From the sequence record MG748547: a stretch of DNA of 64,000 nucleotides; one strand, given 5' to 3'. Below are positions 26,877 to 57,031 of the stretch, one piece after another. The notes beneath the pieces were generated by a model. The model saw only the letters and a list, made by a program, of their open reading frames with translations. It was not told the origin of the DNA and did no database searches. Source of the DNA: Escherichia phage EP75. A program made the translations under genes and the position numbers. Every line of letters starts with the position of its first letter. Position 1 is the first letter of the stretch.

Positions 26877-26905
26877 TTTAACTCAGAAGCATTCAATAGA
26901 TGAAG

Positions 26906-26938
26906 GGGCTGCTATAATAGCAGCTCCTTTTGTTTATT
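26906..26938 (+). terminator. intrinsic terminator
   Basis: gctgctat-aat-agcagc palindrome followed by ttttgtttatt. Confidence 0.5.
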
Positions 26939-26948
26939 GGAGCACACC

Positions 26949-27620
26949 ATGTCGTATTCGCTCAAAGGGTTGTTGAAGCGCCCTGTTCATCTGTTTGTAA
27001 AACCACCCGCTGTTGAAGGGGAATATCCGGCACGAGGAGAGTTGTATTACGTTAAAGGCTCCAACGGTAGCGGCAAGTCCACTGTCCCTTCCTATCTGGC
27101 GGAGAATGATCCTCAGGCATATGTCGTGGCCCGCGATAGCAAGATCATGCTCACGGTTTGCCCTTCTTATAACATTATCTGTATCGGTAAATATGACAAG
27201 TCTAAGTCTAAAGGTGTTGATTCCCTGAAAGACACCGAGCAGATGTTGTTCGCCTTGTCCATTGCGGACCAACCAGAATATCTGAAATACGACGTGATAT
27301 TTGAAGGCATCATCCCTTCAACTCTTCTCAGTTCATGGATTCCCCGCCTGACGCGCCCACCACGAGAATTGGTCGTCCTCTTCATGGATACCCCTCTTGA
27401 AACATGTATTGCCCGTGTGAAATCACGCAATGGCGGCGCAGAGTTCAATGAAAGCCTGGTGGTCGAAAAGTGGGAGAGAGTTCATGACCACCGCCAACGG
27501 CATAAAGGCTTGTTCCCTACCGTTCCCGCAGGTATGATGAAGTCTCACGGTCTAACAGTAGACCAAGCTGTAATGGCATTCCTCTGTCGTGATTTTGGGA
27601 GTATTGATTGTGGAAATTAA
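26949..27620 (+). CDS. P-loop kinase, polynucleotide-kinase-like
   Basis: Walker A GSNGSGKST followed by an ARDS segment (compare T4 Pnk GCPGSGKST ... RD); no phosphatase domain. Confidence 0.5.
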   Translation: MSYSLKGLLKRPVHLFVKPPAVEGEYPARGELYYVKGSNGSGKSTVPSYLAENDPQAYVVARDSKIMLTVCPSYNIICIGKYDKSKSKGVDSLKDTEQMLFALSIADQPEYLKYDVIFEGIIPSTLLSSWIPRLTRPPRELVVLFMDTPLETCIARVKSRNGGAEFNESLVVEKWERVHDHRQRHKGLFPTVPAGMMKSHGLTVDQAVMAFLCRDFGSIDCGN

Positions 27621-28656
27621 AGCAATAAACAACAACGACATGCTGAAACAGGCTGTCTTGGCTATCCGTGAGCACGGGATTGAATCTGATCCAGGTAACG
27701 CGGAGATCAACACCGACGGCACCCGCTTCCTCGATGGTGTGACTATTACCGTCAGTGATATTCGCGACCGCTGGCTTTCCGTTGAAGGTCGCAACTCATC
27801 AGCAATAGCAGCCATCGGCGAAACCTTCTGGGTGCTGTCGGGGCGCGATGATGTTCGCTTCCTTTCTCGTGTGTTACCCCGCGCCGCTAACTTCTCCGAT
27901 AATGGCCACACGTGGCGAGCCGCCTATGGACCACGCCTGTATGCCCATGGCCAGCTGGATAGCGTCATCAACCGCCTGCGCAAGAATCCTAACACGCGCC
28001 AGGCATACCTCACCATCTATGATCCGGCTCTAGACTCAGATTTTGGTCTGGCGAAGTTCAGCCTGAGTGGTGAAGCGAAGACCAAAGACATGGTATGCAA
28101 CCTGGCCCTGCTATTCGCTATCGTTGAAGGTCGCTTGAACCTGACAGTCATCAACCGATCGCAGGATGTTCTCTGGGGTATGAGTTCAATCAACTTCATT
28201 GAGTTCTCTATCCTTCAGGAAGTGATTGCTCAGGTGCTGGATGTTGACGTCGGCCAGTACAAGCTCTTCTCTAACAATCTTCATTACTACAACAATGAAA
28301 TGAGCCAGAAGCAGCTCGGTAAGATCACGAAGGAAACCAAAGTGGAAGCCGGGTTCATCAACTCGTTGATCTACTTCAAGAACGTGACCAACCAGAACCA
28401 TATCCGTGATCTATTCACTGGTGTTCTTCATCACTGTGATATTGGTAGCCCGTGGGAAACTGTCGTCGCCCATCTTAAGAAATACGACGCTGATCGCGGC
28501 CTGATACCACAGATGGCATACTGCTTGTACTGCAAACTGAACGACTACAAGATCAACATGGACATGATCCAAGACCACGGGTTGAACGCAGCACTGCAAC
28601 ATTCACCTGTTGACCGCAAGATCATTGACCCCAAGTTCCTGGAAGGTGTGGTATGA
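27589..28656 (+). CDS. thymidylate synthase-family pyrimidine C5-methylase/hydroxymethylase with C-terminal extension
   Basis: TS-fold motifs FWVLSGRDD, RQAYLTIYDP, catalytic Cys in KDMVCNLAL, NRSQDV (R-S-x-D), Asn in SSINF, NLHYY; start may be GTG 27610. Confidence 0.6.
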   Translation: MILGVLIVEIKAINNNDMLKQAVLAIREHGIESDPGNAEINTDGTRFLDGVTITVSDIRDRWLSVEGRNSSAIAAIGETFWVLSGRDDVRFLSRVLPRAANFSDNGHTWRAAYGPRLYAHGQLDSVINRLRKNPNTRQAYLTIYDPALDSDFGLAKFSLSGEAKTKDMVCNLALLFAIVEGRLNLTVINRSQDVLWGMSSINFIEFSILQEVIAQVLDVDVGQYKLFSNNLHYYNNEMSQKQLGKITKETKVEAGFINSLIYFKNVTNQNHIRDLFTGVLHHCDIGSPWETVVAHLKKYDADRGLIPQMAYCLYCKLNDYKINMDMIQDHGLNAALQHSPVDRKIIDPKFLEGVV

Positions 28657-29222
28657 TGTACCCGAACCTTGAATTCTTCACGGGGCGCAAGCGCTCCGGT
28701 AAGGACTTCTGTTTGGAGTCCCTGATCAGTTTTCATCATATTCAGGGTGATATGGATATTCGTCGTCTGTCTTTCTCGGATGAACTACGACGTGTCGCTA
28801 ATTTCATCTATCCATGGCTACCAGCGGAGGTGGAGGATGCTGTGAAGGACGTTCCCTTCGTACACCCTGATAACCCCAAGGGCTTATCCCCGCGCCAAAT
28901 CTGGCTTCATCTGGGCAGCGATACGGGCTTGCGTTATGTACAGCCAGACCTGTTCCTGTCATTCTTTAAACGATATCAACTTCCTTTGGTTGAACAGAAC
29001 CCCAATGTTCATTATATCGTGAGTGATTTGCGTACTCCTCAGGAATATGAATGGGCGCTGAGCACTAAATGTCCTATCACCCGCATTTCAAAGGCGGATC
29101 GTGGTGGTATCATAGAGGATGACATAGAGGCTTTCATTGATAAGATGGAAGTTGATTATGAATTTGTCAATCCGTTTGAAGGTTGGCAACCGTTCGTCAA
29201 ATTTTATAGGGATCGGAAATGA
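28653..29222 (+). CDS. 1: deoxynucleoside monophosphate kinase (T4 gp1-like)
   Basis: N-terminal GRKRSGKD P-loop variant as recalled for T4 gp1; 189 aa. Confidence 0.55.
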   Translation: MMYPNLEFFTGRKRSGKDFCLESLISFHHIQGDMDIRRLSFSDELRRVANFIYPWLPAEVEDAVKDVPFVHPDNPKGLSPRQIWLHLGSDTGLRYVQPDLFLSFFKRYQLPLVEQNPNVHYIVSDLRTPQEYEWALSTKCPITRISKADRGGIIEDDIEAFIDKMEVDYEFVNPFEGWQPFVKFYRDRK

Positions 29223-29773
29223 TCACAGCAGAGCATATTAAAAGTCTGCTCGAACTTCAAAAGGCCACCAACGTGGCCTACTTTGGGGAAGAGTGGAAGA
29301 ATGTATGGAGTCATAACGCCGTCGTCAACTCCATATATCGTGAGTGGGCAGAGTTTCTTGATGAAACGACTGCTGACTGGAAGGTTTATGGAAACGACAT
29401 CGGGTTTAACCATGCGAACGCAGTCTATGAACTGGTGGACGTGGTTCACTTCATGCTGTGCTTCGTCCTGTTGGACCGTACCAAAGGCGAGATCGAAGAA
29501 GAATTCGAAATCCTCAGTGGTCGCGAATTCACCTTATTTGCTTCGATTGCTGTCGGACATCGAGGTGTGACGTATCGCCTTGGGCAATTCATGAACGATC
29601 CTTGCGTCGAGACTCTCATGTTCTTCCTGTCGGATGCTTGCTTTTACATGGAGATTGACATTGAGACCTACATGCTGGCACACAAACGCAAAAATGATCG
29701 CAATCGGCTGCGTGCTGCTGGTGGCGCGAACTACGATAAGTCCGCAGAAACCCCTCTGACCCTGGAGTTCTAA
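29219..29773 (+). CDS. all-alpha NTP pyrophosphatase (MazG/dimeric dUTPase family; T4 gp56-like)
   Basis: EWAEFLDE and YELVDVVHF acidic motifs spaced as in the E-x2-E ... E-x2-D signature. Confidence 0.45.
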   Translation: MITAEHIKSLLELQKATNVAYFGEEWKNVWSHNAVVNSIYREWAEFLDETTADWKVYGNDIGFNHANAVYELVDVVHFMLCFVLLDRTKGEIEEEFEILSGREFTLFASIAVGHRGVTYRLGQFMNDPCVETLMFFLSDACFYMEIDIETYMLAHKRKNDRNRLRAAGGANYDKSAETPLTLEF

Positions 29774-30303
29774 TGTTTACAGTTGTCGTATCATATTATG
29801 CGGAACATGCCCCGCACATGGCAGAGAACTTCGCTGAGTTTATTAAACCAGGCGGTCATGTCGTTATTGCGACCAATTTCAAGAAAGAGCCAGATGGTGC
29901 GGCTACTGTAACACAACACATTACAACCAAAGAGCCGGAAACACTTTTTAAACGCATTGAGGATTTTGCTTTTGGCGGGGAAGAAATTCCAGAGTCATTA
30001 CAGCATATCTATTTTGAAGATGCGATATATTATATTCATGCTATACCAAAGGATGTTACGACCGAACAACTAATGTATGTTTTGAATATTGCGTTAAATT
30101 TATCGTGCGTCAACAGGGCACAGCATAATCGTTTGCGCAATATGTATTTAACAGAACGCGGGGGTTCCGAAATTAACGATGAAAAACTCCCGTCAATAAT
30201 GGCGATTCACGAAGCAATCAATATATTGTCCAAGAAAGTCTTGGGCACCGATTTATTAATTACGATCAACAAGCAAGAGGAAACGAAATGGCCGATTCAT
30301 TGA
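29773..30303 (+). CDS. hypothetical protein
   Basis: 176-aa ORF between the nucleotide cluster and uvsX. Confidence 0.45.
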   Translation: MFTVVVSYYAEHAPHMAENFAEFIKPGGHVVIATNFKKEPDGAATVTQHITTKEPETLFKRIEDFAFGGEEIPESLQHIYFEDAIYYIHAIPKDVTTEQLMYVLNIALNLSCVNRAQHNRLRNMYLTERGGSEINDEKLPSIMAIHEAINILSKKVLGTDLLITINKQEETKWPIH

Positions 30304-35245: not shown

Positions 35246-35455
35246 ATGGAATGTTCATGCGGAGGGCAAGGCACAAGTGCATACTTGCCATTTAACACCG
35301 TCAAGGAAGCCGAAGACGCTGGATATGCCGTGGACAAGGCTCCCTGTGTAATTGCCACCAAGGATTGTCCGTGCTGTAAGAGGCACTCTCAGAACGTTTG
35401 GTATGCCCCAGAAGCAAAGGGTAAAATTAATTTATTGAATATGATGAGGAAGTAA
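35246..35455 (+). CDS. small Cys-rich protein
   Basis: 69 aa, CSCGG ... CPCCKRH. Confidence 0.35.
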   Translation: MECSCGGQGTSAYLPFNTVKEAEDAGYAVDKAPCVIATKDCPCCKRHSQNVWYAPEAKGKINLLNMMRK

Positions 35456-35456
35456 T

Positions 35457-35795
35457 ATGACCACACTCGTAGAAACATTATTCCCAGGATGCACCCTTGG
35501 GCGCGGCGGTAGCGAAGCCAACGGGCTGGCAATTGACGCCGAACCCCAGAACTGCGTTGTTATCGACAAATTCCATGACAATCACTATCCTTTGAGCCAT
35601 CGCCGTGATCATTATCTGGTTTCTGTTGGCGAAACATTGGTCTCTCTTCGTATTTGTGAAGCAATGCCTGGTTATGGTTACGATGCATTTGCATATATCC
35701 ATAGCGTTTCCAATGGGGAAATGGGGAAAGAATCCCTGACCGAACAATTTAAAGGATGGAAAGAATCTTTCACTTCTGTCAAGGAAAGGAGTTAG
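35457..35795 (+). CDS. hypothetical protein
   Basis: 112-aa ORF. Confidence 0.4.
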   Translation: MTTLVETLFPGCTLGRGGSEANGLAIDAEPQNCVVIDKFHDNHYPLSHRRDHYLVSVGETLVSLRICEAMPGYGYDAFAYIHSVSNGEMGKESLTEQFKGWKESFTSVKERS

Positions 35796-35817
35796 AATAA
35801 TTCTATTGAAGTCTCTG

Positions 35818-43362: not shown

Positions 43363-44103
43363 ATGGCTATGTATCTCGTATACCAAATTACCAATCTGAT
43401 AAACAATAAAATATATGTTGGGGTTCATAAAGGAACTCCAGATGATGGTTATATGGGTTCTGGCCGAGTTATAACAAGAGCGATATTGAAATATGGTGTT
43501 GAGAATTTTCGCAAAGATATATTGAAAGTTTGTAAAACATCAGAAGAAATGTATGAAGAAGAATTCAGGATAGTGAATCAAGAATTTATAGATAGAGATG
43601 ACACATATAATTTAACATGCGGTGGGCGTGGTTCATTTACGCACATAAATTCGGATCCATTAATCAGGGCCAACGCTTCGGAGAAGGCTCTCAAAACCCT
43701 AAGTTTAAAATCAAAAGACGAATTACAAAGAATTTACAAATCTAGGGGATTTCCTGGAGAAAGAAATTTTTGGTTTGGTAAAAACAGGTCCGGTGAAAAT
43801 AACTCAAGATTTGGCTATGTAATGGAACAAGAAACAAAGGACAAAATAAGAAATTCCAACAAGAAAAGAGTGGAATCCGGCCTCGTGGATTATTCTAATT
43901 GCAAAGGACCAATCACAAAAGAAGGGAAGAACGCAATATCCCAAGCGAACTCCAGAGAATTCAAATTTGTTAATCCAGAAGGAAATTTGGTCACAGTTAT
44001 CAACCTTTCCAAATTCTGTAAAGAAAATGAATTGAGCGAAGGATCTATGAGACATGTCCATAACGGCCGAAACATACAACATAAAGGTTGGAGGAAAGCA
44101 TAA
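43363..44103 (+). CDS. GIY-YIG homing endonuclease
   Basis: N-terminal YLVYQITNLINNKIYVGVH ... GSG matches the GIY-YIG signature; basic C-terminal DNA-binding-like region. Confidence 0.75.
   Translation: MAMYLVYQITNLINNKIYVGVHKGTPDDGYMGSGRVITRAILKYGVENFRKDILKVCKTSEEMYEEEFRIVNQEFIDRDDTYNLTCGGRGSFTHINSDPLIRANASEKALKTLSLKSKDELQRIYKSRGFPGERNFWFGKNRSGENNSRFGYVMEQETKDKIRNSNKKRVESGLVDYSNCKGPITKEGKNAISQANSREFKFVNPEGNLVTVINLSKFCKENELSEGSMRHVHNGRNIQHKGWRKA
43363..44103 (+). mobile_element. free-standing homing endonuclease gene
   Basis: GIY-YIG ORF at a strand-switch point between the late tail block and a nuclease-like gene. Confidence 0.55.
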
Positions 44104-45342: not shown

Positions 45343-45864
45343 TTAATTCCTTACTTTGTCTGGGTTGGATAAGATTTGTTCGTATCCGACTTCGCCTTGA
45401 TCGTCGAAAACATGCTGAAGAATCGCCATATCGTCTACCATCCGATAAACTTCAATTCCAGCGTTCATCAATTTTTTGATTCCATCCATGATACGATATG
45501 GCTCTTGATAATATACTTTATCGATCTTGCCGTTGTCGATGATCTTCTGAGTGCAATCAGGGCATGGGCTATGTGTCACAAACATAACCAACCCTGTGAA
45601 ATCATCTGCATTTTCGGGGATACGCATTAGAGCATTTTCCTCCGCATGAATGACACACGGGTTTGTAACAATTTGCCCGTGTTGTTCCATCTCACAAACA
45701 TTCGGCATGCCAGGAGGCGTTCCGTTCCATCCGATAGCCACAGGCTGATCAGTTTCAGGGTTTACGATAACACAACCGACTTGCAGACGCCGAGCATAAC
45801 TGGTTACACCATATGCTGCAGCTGATCGCATATGGGCGAACATCATTCGTGGTTTGATAGCCAT
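45343..45864 (-). CDS. cd: dCMP deaminase
   Basis: Zinc-binding cytidine/dCMP deaminase motifs HAEENAL and PCPDC; 173 aa. Confidence 0.75.
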   Translation of the reverse strand: MAIKPRMMFAHMRSAAAYGVTSYARRLQVGCVIVNPETDQPVAIGWNGTPPGMPNVCEMEQHGQIVTNPCVIHAEENALMRIPENADDFTGLVMFVTHSPCPDCTQKIIDNGKIDKVYYQEPYRIMDGIKKLMNAGIEVYRMVDDMAILQHVFDDQGEVGYEQILSNPDKVRN

Positions 45865-56452: not shown

Positions 56453-57031
56453 TTATAGACCAAATTTAGTGCGCCATTTTTCCACTTTGTGTTCTATGGC
56501 ATGTTCCACTTTAACGATCGTGTTGATATGGTTTTGATTATATCCACACGCCAATTTGGCAGTATTGCGTATCAGATTTGAAACCAGGTCCACCATATTA
56601 TCTTCTGAACGTTGAGGTTGGTTCAGTAAACGAGTGATGCGGCCTTTGTAATGATTAACCATCGCAAGATATTTGTCTATAGTTTCAACACCACTGCAGA
56701 ACCAATAATCCTCCAACGTATGTTGGCTGAGATCAGTTGTGTGATTGGCCGTAGCCAAAGCAAACACCATGGAGTCAAAGATTTCTTCTTTGGTCATAGA
56801 CCCATGTTGTTGAACTTGTTGATAATCCACAACATATAATAGATCCAGAGCCGAGATGATAACGTCCGCCACTTCACCGTTCAGGGGTTCGGATGCAGCG
56901 ATTCCATAAAGCACATCTGATAGTTCACAAGACTCTTCCACGAGTTTGCAATATACAAACACAGGAGAACGATTAGGATCGCGCTGGCTGAGTTCATATG
57001 ATGTGTTGAAGATAGTTTTTAGAAAATTCAT
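56453..57031 (-). CDS. MazG-like nucleotide pyrophosphohydrolase (putative)
   Basis: LVEESCELSDVLYG ... NGEVADVIISALDLL fits E-E-x2-E ... E-x2-D spacing. Confidence 0.35.
   Translation of the reverse strand: MNFLKTIFNTSYELSQRDPNRSPVFVYCKLVEESCELSDVLYGIAASEPLNGEVADVIISALDLLYVVDYQQVQQHGSMTKEEIFDSMVFALATANHTTDLSQHTLEDYWFCSGVETIDKYLAMVNHYKGRITRLLNQPQRSEDNMVDLVSNLIRNTAKLACGYNQNHINTIVKVEHAIEHKVEKWRTKFGL

Follow-up and report, generated by a model that had tools for sequence, protein, structure and literature searches.

We find that four consecutive genes on the plus strand of Escherichia phage EP75, at positions 26949–29773 of the window (the whole 64,000-nucleotide stretch analysed, from sequence record MG748547), very probably represent part of the thymidine hypermodification pathway of the ViI type, namely its conserved nucleotide-pool steps and the first half at the DNA level, a reading that we hold at a probability of about 0.9. 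An earlier note, made from the sequence letters, had proposed a base-hypermodification module here. The proposal is supported by a kinase of the PF18748 family, by the orthology of this kinase to gp67 of Salmonella phage ViI and by a thymidylate synthase (TS)-fold enzyme that is not of the ThyA type. As the window contains neither the transferase nor the decarboxylase gene, the block would account for no more than the pathway's first half.

Sequence reading and the list of open reading frames (ORFs) gave an overlap of 11 nt between the kinase and TS-fold genes and one of 4 nt at each of the two later junctions, both of which read ATGA; the four genes are translationally coupled. The partly overlapping arrangement that had been described is therefore present as proposed, with all four genes on the plus strand. 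The kinase ORF (26949–27620) encodes 223 aa from an ATG preceded by GGAG, the TS-fold ORF (27610–28656) 348 aa, the dNMP kinase ORF (28653–29222) 189 aa and the NTP pyrophosphatase ORF (29219–29773) 184 aa. For the TS-fold gene, the GTG at 27610, with GGGAG ahead of it, is most likely the true start, in agreement with the annotation of phage Marshall; the mechanical ORF start is at 27589. An intrinsic-terminator-like hairpin on the plus strand (26902–26930), consisting of a 13-bp stem and then a T-rich tail, was detected by a terminator scan and by reading of the sequence, and is also annotated there in Marshall; it closes the upstream gene 18 nt ahead of the kinase start codon. No sigma-70-like promoter was found between this terminator and the kinase start, and a TATAAT in the terminator loop, which has no usable −35 element, was dismissed as chance. 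Two minus-strand ORFs across the block (112 and 119 aa) were rejected as genes, as they are antisense to strongly conserved coding sequence, and the Marshall and ViI annotations contain no minus-strand CDS at their position. The four plus-strand ORFs are not chance, given their strong family matches in Pfam and PHROGs and the occurrence of the same block in 271 phage records. Searches of the PADLOC defence-system library with the four block proteins and the ACT-like protein encoded downstream gave no matches, and a tRNA search of the 64-kb window found none.

The window belongs to a Kuttervirus (ViI-like, Ackermannviridae): it is ~94% identical to Kuttervirus genomes and colinear with phage ViI, from 65.6 kb to 0.9 kb of the latter. 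Gene order within the block is conserved in the 271 records and is also kept in the distant Serratia phage KNP4 and Vibrio phage K446, at 34–57% identity. In ViI (Vi01), the block corresponds to orf67–orf66–orf65–orf63, encoding gp67 (5-HMUDK, the DNA kinase for 5-hydroxymethyl-dU, or 5-hmdU), the dUMP hydroxymethylase 'thyA', 'dnk' and 'dUTPase', which are part of the pathway to 5-NeOmdU (Lee et al. 2018, 2021). The two phages agree in gene order, orientation and neighbours, with a gene of unknown function upstream and the ACT-like, UvsX and DnaB genes downstream. Identities to ViI across the four proteins are 93.6%, 76%, 98% and 64.5%; relative to ViI, the window carries alternative alleles of the hydroxymethylase and of the pyrophosphatase centre, and its kinase has 3 extra residues at the C terminus. 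The block in Marshall (NC_022772), one of the 5-HMUDK-encoding ViI-like phages listed in Lee et al. 2018, is 96.4% identical at the nucleotide level. Its hydroxymethylase and dNMP kinase proteins are 100% identical to those of the window, the pyrophosphatase centre is replaced (66.7% protein identity), and an HNH homing endonuclease ahead of the Marshall helicase is missing from the window.

The first gene (26949–27620, plus strand) is a predicted 5-hmdU DNA kinase, identified as the orthologue of ViI gp67 by Pfam match, identity and synteny. Its product matched Pfam PF18748 (HMUDK_HMUD1, "5-hmdU DNA kinase") with E = 8.7e-114 and 378.3 bits against a cut-off of 27, over profile positions 1–195 of 196, which amounts to the full length. 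The Walker A motif GSNGSGKST occupies residues 37–45, and five family members carry this P-loop unchanged (the window protein, ViI gp67, its paralogue ViI gp243, and the KNP4 and K446 proteins). Identity to gp67 (YP_004327432) extends over 220 aa at the same genomic position, and the Marshall protein is 96.4% identical. ViI gp67 has been experimentally shown to phosphorylate 5-hmdU in DNA (PMC8989533). The guess that the extra kinase in this cluster is a 5-hmdU DNA kinase was accordingly well founded, and the protein is not a tRNA-repair polynucleotide kinase (PNK). The description 'PNK-like' fared less well: the protein is a P-loop kinase, but the match to PHROG 505 polynucleotide kinase (E = 1.9e-4) was exceeded by that to thymidylate kinase PHROG 761 (E = 3.3e-5), and T4 Pnk was not among the PDB matches at E up to 1 in sequence and profile searches. 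What the protein has in common with T4 Pnk is that both are P-loop kinases with a polynucleotide substrate; whereas T4 Pnk acts on the 5′-OH end, the kinase here is predicted to act on the hydroxymethyl group of the base, and it has no phosphatase domain. Sequence and profile searches of the PDB returned generic P-loop matches only and no solved structure of the 5-hmdU DNA kinase family, and a single-sequence AlphaFold2 model of the kinase (mean pLDDT of 38) was unusable.

The second gene (27610–28656, plus strand) encodes a TS-fold enzyme that we read as a dUMP 5-hydroxymethyltransferase from PF00303, PHROG 3676 and the similarity ranking. The match to PF00303 (E = 3.8e-16, 59.5 bits, cut-off 24.3) leaves ~100 C-terminal residues outside; that to PHROG 3676 reached 605 bits (E = 8.5e-182). 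The key residues are Cys163, Arg183, Ser184, Asp186, Asn195, His225 and Tyr227, of which Cys163 aligns with the TS 'pCH' cysteine and Arg183, Ser184 and Asp186 with the TS R-S-x-D motif. Asn195 corresponds to the conserved, uracil-type Asn of TS; in the CMP hydroxymethylase MilA an Asp lies beside that position. Asn, as opposed to Asp, is a base-specificity residue in TS and T4 gp42. We know of no decisive sequence signature that separates hydroxymethylase from methylase activity, and the reading as a dUMP hydroxymethylase is based on the similarity ranking together with the DNA chemistry of relatives. MilA is the best solved relative (E = 1.3e-16, compared with 1e-7 to 2e-9 for ThyA), and against seven NCBIfam ThyA equivalog models the protein scored 20–56 bits, below every cut-off (108–427). 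This sets it apart from an ordinary Td or ThyA enzyme. Among the matches listed, the nearest outside the family is a homologue in phage M6 (31.5% identity, E = 8e-27), and T4-like-phage proteins annotated as thymidylate synthase matched weakly (~1e-4 to 7e-6). As for the chemistry of relatives, the orthologue in phage CBA120 groups with dUMP hydroxymethylases in a phylogeny, and CBA120 itself showed no 3H-thymidine incorporation (PMC3184105).

These data bear on a different reading of the block, as an ordinary thymidylate-supply cluster (Td-type TS, nucleotide kinase and dUTPase) beside a small terminase subunit. The RefSeq and PHROG labels for the block, 'thymidylate synthase' and 'terminase small subunit', would agree with such a cluster, as would the catalytic Cys and uracil-type Asn of the TS-fold protein. 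However, the supposed terminase is the very protein with the Pfam 5-hmdU DNA kinase match and the Walker A motif of a kinase, and ViI has a separate small terminase that adjoins its large terminase. The TS-fold protein falls short of the ThyA models and is nearer to a hydroxymethylase, CBA120 does not incorporate thymidine and ViI DNA carries 5-NeOmdU. We consider a thymidylate-supply cluster extremely unlikely and retain the hypermodification reading.

The third gene (28653–29222, plus strand) encodes a T4 gp1-like dNMP kinase that we read as a 5-hmdUMP kinase on the basis of PHROG 139, its P-loop and a profile match. PHROG 139 (dNMP kinase) was matched with E = 7.4e-48, and the P-loop GRKRSGKD (residues 11–18) aligns with GVKRSGKD of gp1. 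A profile of four orthologues matched T4 gp1 (1DEK) weakly (E = 0.0057), over the P-loop and a second stretch. The label 'gp1-like' is based on PHROG 139 and this weak profile match; the Pfam DNMK model (PF21448) was hit below its cut-off (E = 0.037, 14.1 bits, cut-off 27.1). The protein is 98% identical to ViI 'dnk'. A comparison with the 5-hmC pathway of T4, in which gp42 is a dCMP hydroxymethylase, gp1 a dNMP kinase and gp56 a dCTPase/dUTPase, had also been drawn. It holds for the scheme, as both systems would replace a pyrimidine at the pool level with the same three enzymes and the two dNMP kinases have the P-loop GxKRSGKD in common. It does not hold for the base: with Asn195 in place of Asp, uracil/thymine is predicted here instead of cytosine. 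The genes also sit together here, unlike in T4, and the DNA-level step would be phosphorylation, whereas T4 uses glucosylation.

The fourth gene (29219–29773, plus strand) encodes an all-alpha NTP pyrophosphatase, assigned to the dimeric dUTPase family through PF08761, PHROG 173 and 1W2Y. It matched Pfam PF08761 (dUTPase_2) with E = 1e-7 and 32.8 bits (cut-off 22.9) and PHROG 173 with E = 2.7e-39; the C. jejuni dUTPase 1W2Y was matched at E = 0.001 with the metal-binding motifs aligned. These motifs begin at residue 42 (E-x-x-E-x-x-D) and at residue 71 (E-x-x-D-x-x-H-F). The NCBIfam dUTPase equivalog NF049964 scored 29.8 bits, under its cut-off of 300. The designation 'MazG-type' is correct only for the wider all-alpha NTP pyrophosphatase superfamily; the family itself is that of dimeric dUTPases, and the MazG model (Pfam PF03819) gave no match at E up to 0.1. 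A second, MazG-like pyrophosphatase is encoded at 56453–57031. We read the block protein as a dUTPase and probably also a dTTPase, a role that has been proposed for CBA120 (PMC3184105).

The central ~70 residues of the pyrophosphatase form a variable cassette, which is strongly unlike that of the ViI and Marshall alleles; the allele of Ag3 and SKML-39 is ~90% identical at the nucleotide level. Both the pyrophosphatase centre and the TS-fold gene occur in two allele groups, and within the block GC3 is highest in these two genes. Such variation, with a hydroxymethylase at 76% and a pyrophosphatase at ~65% identity to ViI, the latter with its central cassette replaced, would be in line with a completed pathway that has an end product other than 5-NeOmdU or a different nucleotide-pool specificity. 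We regard this as very unlikely: it is the transferase and decarboxylase, and not the genes with alternative alleles, that determine the final chemistry; the catalytic residues and metal-binding motifs are retained; and Marshall, Ag3 and Dickeya phages, members of a family reported to share its modification genes, carry these alleles too.

Beyond the block, the next gene (29773–30303, plus strand) encodes a 176-aa protein with a phage ACT-like domain (Pfam PF24021, E = 1.3e-88; PHROG 3839, unknown function) and is translationally coupled to the pyrophosphatase gene through a 1-nt overlap. It was found in 272 records, of Ackermannviridae-type phages only, and always between the pyrophosphatase and UvsX. 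The same slot holds a 26% identical protein in KNP4 and a protein without detectable similarity in K446. A literature search on the ACT_phage family found no papers. The ACT-like protein could act as a regulator that senses a small molecule, or could take part in the conversion of non-hypermodified 5-hmdU to thymine, and the swappable cassette of the pyrophosphatase could tune which dNTPs are kept out of the pool. Taken jointly, we judge these two ideas to be speculative and very unlikely, as they draw on synteny within one phage family and on allelic variation, and on nothing else.

By homology and from biochemistry on relatives, the steps before replication may be outlined as follows. The pyrophosphatase and a dCMP deaminase encoded outside the block (45343–45864, minus strand) would provide dUMP. 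This deaminase (Pfam PF00383, E = 5.2e-17; PHROG 174, E = 4.2e-64) is 97% identical to that of ViI, and we infer that it supplies dUMP to the hydroxymethylase; the role of dCMP deaminase in hmU phages has been described (PMC8989533). The TS-fold enzyme would then transfer a hydroxymethyl group from methylene-tetrahydrofolate onto dUMP, yielding 5-hmdUMP, which the dNMP kinase would convert to 5-hmdUDP and the host NDP kinase to 5-hmdUTP. With dUTP, and probably dTTP, cleared by the pyrophosphatase, the phage polymerase would insert 5-hmdU instead of T. After replication, the 5-hmdU DNA kinase would move the γ-phosphate of ATP onto the 5-hydroxymethyl group of 5-hmdU in DNA. An aGPT-Pplase2 of the gp247 type would exchange the phosphate for serine, and a gp226-type PLP decarboxylase would produce 5-(2-aminoethoxy)methyl-dU (5-NeOmdU) at ~40% of T positions, both enzymes being encoded outside the window. 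Leftover 5-hmdU would be turned into thymine by a step without an assigned enzyme, and the modified DNA would resist many restriction endonucleases. The activity of gp67 and the reconstitution of 5-NeOmdU have been reported (PMC5889632, PMC8989533).

In ViI, the later steps need gp247 (serine transferase), gp226 (decarboxylase), gp243 and gp160. Searches of the 64-kb window by tblastn with ViI gp160, gp226, gp243, gp247 and DNA polymerase gave no match; with orthologues of these four later-step proteins absent from the window, the case for a completed pathway comes from relatives. The lack of aGPT-Pplase and PLP-enzyme genes here might be taken to mean that EP75 lacks the transferase and decarboxylase or has inactive forms of them, leaving DNA with 5-hmdU only, as in SPO1, or with phosphorylated 5-hmdU as the last stage. 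Against this, the ViI later-step genes are located at 87–152 kb, beyond the segment homologous to the window, and a gp247 orthologue at a minimum of 80% identity is present in ~273 phage records whose host genera are the same as those of the 271 block records. Moreover, an intact, conserved DNA kinase would be purposeless without a later step, and ViI virions contain no 5-hmdU. Arrest at such a stage appears highly improbable, and a review describes all modification genes as conserved across Ackermannviridae. Therefore, a complete ViI-type pathway remains the preferred reading, and the product in virion DNA is expected to be 5-(2-aminoethoxy)methyl-dU.

The 5-NedU cluster of Pseudomonas phage M6 (gp51–gp55 and the TS homologue) follows the same logic: a 5-hmdU DNA kinase with a dUMP hydroxymethylase nearby, then a transferase of the amino-acid:DNA type and a PLP decarboxylase. 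M6 keeps its post-replicative genes together with the kinase, whereas in ViI-like phages they are dispersed; it also employs glycine and a radical SAM isomerase, and its end product is a C–C linked base.

In PHROG 800 and many RefSeq records, the 5-hmdU DNA kinase goes under the name 'terminase small subunit' and the hydroxymethylase under that of 'thymidylate synthase', and because of these mislabels automated annotation hides the pathway. The pathway is already known for the ViI-like family (Kutter 2011, Lee 2018, Lee 2021), and our result adds little to it: it confirms that EP75 is a ViI-like phage whose DNA is expected to contain 5-(2-aminoethoxy)methyl-dU. The expected modification bears on restriction digestion, sequencing and cloning of the phage DNA, as well as on predicting the host-nuclease resistance of phage-therapy candidates.

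Checking of open reading frames (ORFs) confirmed that the four genes placed by the earlier note at 26949–29773 on the + strand are real. The kinase (26949–27620, 223 amino acids (aa)) starts with ATG after GGAG, and the thymidylate synthase (TS)-family enzyme (27610–28656, 348 aa) starts with GTG after GGGAG, following the annotation of Salmonella phage Marshall (NC_022772; the mechanical ORF start is 27589). The dNMP kinase (28653–29222, 189 aa) and the NTP pyrophosphatase (29219–29773, 184 aa) both start with ATG. As read from the sequence, the three junctions within the block are overlaps of 11, 4 and 4 nt; the final base of the pyrophosphatase stop codon is also the first base of the downstream gene. 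A strong terminator-like hairpin with a 13-bp stem (26902–26930) lies 18 nt 5′ of the kinase start; a promoter search for the block was negative. Downstream, the coding run continues through genes for an ACT-like protein, UvsX, a 109-aa ORF and a DnaB-type helicase. The tRNA search of the window returned zero, and a PADLOC search with the block proteins and the ACT-like protein gave no matches.

The kinase covers the whole Pfam model PF18748, '5-hmdU DNA kinase' (E = 8.7e-114, 378 bits). Its Walker A motif, GSNGSGKST (residues 37–45), is unchanged in gp67 of Salmonella phage ViI (NC_015296), in the ViI paralogue gp243 and in the homologues from Serratia phage KNP4 and Vibrio phage K446. It is gp67 (YP_004327432) that is encoded at the kinase's position in ViI, and this enzyme moves the ATP γ-phosphate onto 5-hmdU within DNA (PMC8989533). 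The earlier description of the kinase as 'PNK-like' found no specific support: the polynucleotide kinase PHROG matched at E = 1.9e-4, weaker than thymidylate kinase (3.3e-5), and sequence and profile searches up to E = 1 returned no polynucleotide kinase among the matching solved structures. A structure model of the kinase predicted from its sequence alone was unusable (mean pLDDT 38). PHROG 800 and RefSeq label the protein 'terminase small subunit', as would suit an ordinary dTMP cluster beside a small terminase. In ViI the small terminase is a different gene, adjoining that of the large terminase, so this label is a propagated annotation error. The dTMP-cluster explanation is contradicted by that separate terminase and the PF18748 match and, at the second gene, by failed ThyA equivalog cut-offs and proximity to the CMP hydroxymethylase MilA. 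The same mislabel stands in many RefSeq/GenBank records, including ViI Vi01_061c, Marshall_146 and Vibrio phage K446 gene 0184.

The TS-fold enzyme carries the thymidylate synthase domain PF00303 (E = 3.8e-16) and retains Cys163, Arg183-Ser184-x-Asp186, Asn195, His225 and Tyr227, aligned with the TS catalytic residues. Asn195, where cytosine-specific hydroxymethylases have Asp, points to a uracil substrate; this Asn/Asp rule of base specificity is established for TS and T4 gp42. By its sequence the enzyme is not an ordinary ThyA, and it scored 20–56 bits against seven NCBIfam ThyA equivalog models with cut-offs of 108–427 bits. The closest solved structure is MilA (E = 1.3e-16), with thymidylate synthases at 1e-7 to 2e-9, and the enzyme and MilA have in common a YGPR region where TS has folate-binding tryptophans. 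Outside the family, the matches listed included a TS homologue from the hypermodifying phage M6 (E = 8e-27); T4-like phage proteins annotated as thymidylate synthase matched weakly (E about 1e-4 to 7e-6). In the related phage CBA120, thymidine is not incorporated, and the orthologue clusters with the dUMP hydroxymethylases of SPO1 and phiW-14 (PMC3184105). Together, the domain and residues, the ThyA cut-offs and the MilA, M6 and CBA120 evidence therefore make hydroxymethylase activity a strong inference. Hydroxymethylase alleles in Ackermannviridae form two groups (90 records at 90–95% and 166 at 60–80% protein identity); the window has the Marshall/Dickeya allele and ViI, of the same genus, the other (76%). 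Within the block, GC3 is highest in the hydroxymethylase (0.62) and the pyrophosphatase (0.58); GC of the window is 0.447.

The 'gp1-like' description of the dNMP kinase draws on a match to PHROG 139, dNMP kinase (E = 7.4e-48), a P-loop of the gp1 type (GRKRSGKD) and a weak match of a four-orthologue profile to T4 gp1 (1DEK, E = 0.0057), but the Pfam DNMK score is under the cut-off. The pyrophosphatase had been called 'MazG-type'; instead, with zero MazG-family matches in Pfam, it passes the dimeric dUTPase model PF08761 (32.8 bits versus a cut-off of 22.9) and matches PHROG 173. Alignment with Campylobacter dUTPase 1W2Y places its ExxExxD and ExxDxxHF motifs in register, and its score is far under the dUTPase equivalog cut-off. 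Kutter et al. proposed that this enzyme removes dTTP too (PMC3184105). Over the central ~70 residues of the pyrophosphatase (29470–29663) the gene has an alternative allele: at nucleotide level this stretch matches neither ViI nor Marshall (overall protein identity 65–67%) but is ~90% identical to its counterparts in Shigella phage Ag3, SKML-39 and Dickeya phages. Conservation extends over both motif-bearing terminal regions. The pattern suggests intragenic recombination between Ackermannviridae genera. A second, unrelated MazG-like pyrophosphatase lies 27 kb off at 56453–57031 on the − strand (PHROG 1247, E = 1.3e-40; without a Pfam match; 73% identical to ViI orf11) and is another candidate for clearing dTTP/dUTP from the pool.

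The window is colinear with ViI in reverse (ViI ~65.6 kb down to 0.9 kb) and shares ~94% identity with a number of Kuttervirus genomes, among them 4HA11, Det7 and Marshall. In ViI the block genes correspond, in order, to orf67, orf66 ('thyA'), orf65 ('dnk') and orf63 ('dUTPase'), with protein identities of 93.6%, 76%, 98% and 64.5%; those to Marshall are 96.4%, 100%, 100% and 66.7%. KNP4 and K446 keep the same order (kinase, TS-fold enzyme, dNMP kinase, pyrophosphatase, small gene, UvsX, small gene, helicase), with the four block proteins only 34–57% identical. The first of these small genes in the window (29773–30303), in translational coupling with the gene for the pyrophosphatase, has a 176-aa product that matches the 'phage ACT-like domain' (PF24021) at E = 1.3e-88. 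This protein was found in Ackermannviridae-type phages only, always between pyrophosphatase and UvsX, and diverges quickly between genera (40–57% identity); a literature search for the family found no papers. The 109-aa ORF directly abuts the helicase gene in the window (31680/31681) and in ViI, whereas in Marshall an HNH homing endonuclease (L001 11191–11673) separates the two. Elsewhere, a 246-aa GIY-YIG/SegE-like homing endonuclease (43363–44103, + strand; PF19835 above cut-off, NUMOD3 motif, PHROG 314 at E = 6e-48) lies between the tail-tube-cap and head-completion genes, in a segment without counterpart in ViI. A variable region adjoining the DNA ligase gene (35395–35796) spans ~400 bp, including a 112-aa ORF without a Pfam match, versus ~2.2 kb with five small genes in ViI (28.2–30.4 kb).

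The finding is correct and already known, because publications on this phage family cover each element, and Lee 2018 (PMC5889632) lists Marshall, whose gene 2 and 3 proteins are identical to those of the window. The hydroxymethylase, dNMP kinase and dUTPase/dTTPase come from Kutter 2011 (PMC3184105), the modified base and reconstitution from Lee 2018 (PMC5889632) and the enzymology from Lee 2021 (PMC8989533); the DNA kinase was predicted by Aravind and coworkers, as cited in the latter two papers. The pathway proposed here is built from that literature and from homologies, and for EP75 we infer all of it. dCMP deaminase (45343–45864) and the pyrophosphatase would supply dUMP to the hydroxymethylase, and the dNMP kinase and host NDP kinase would yield 5-hmdUTP, with dUTP, and probably dTTP as well, being hydrolysed. 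The phage polymerase would then put 5-hmdU in place of T, and the DNA kinase would phosphorylate the hydroxymethyl group in DNA. A gp247-type transferase would replace the phosphate with serine, and a gp226-type PLP enzyme would decarboxylate the product to 5-(2-aminoethoxy)methyl-dU; leftover 5-hmdU would become thymine in a step without an assigned enzyme. The kinase, transferase and decarboxylase steps have been demonstrated with ViI proteins (PMC5889632, PMC8989533).

No orthologue of ViI gp160, gp226, gp243 or gp247 was found in the 64-kb window by tblastn; in ViI their genes lie at 87, 140, 149 and 151 kb, beyond the window-homologous segment. The block occurs in 271 phage records, with Salmonella, Klebsiella, Escherichia, Dickeya and related hosts, in agreement in number and host genera with the ~273 records that carry a gp247 orthologue (identity at least 80%). 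Against this family-wide conservation of modification genes, an outcome limited to 5-hmdU or a different end product is unlikely. The idea of a base-hypermodification module, reached by the earlier note from sequence alone, was right, but only half of the pathway is in the window: because the gp160, gp226, gp243 and gp247 genes lie elsewhere in ViI, the block is half of a dispersed pathway and not a self-contained module.
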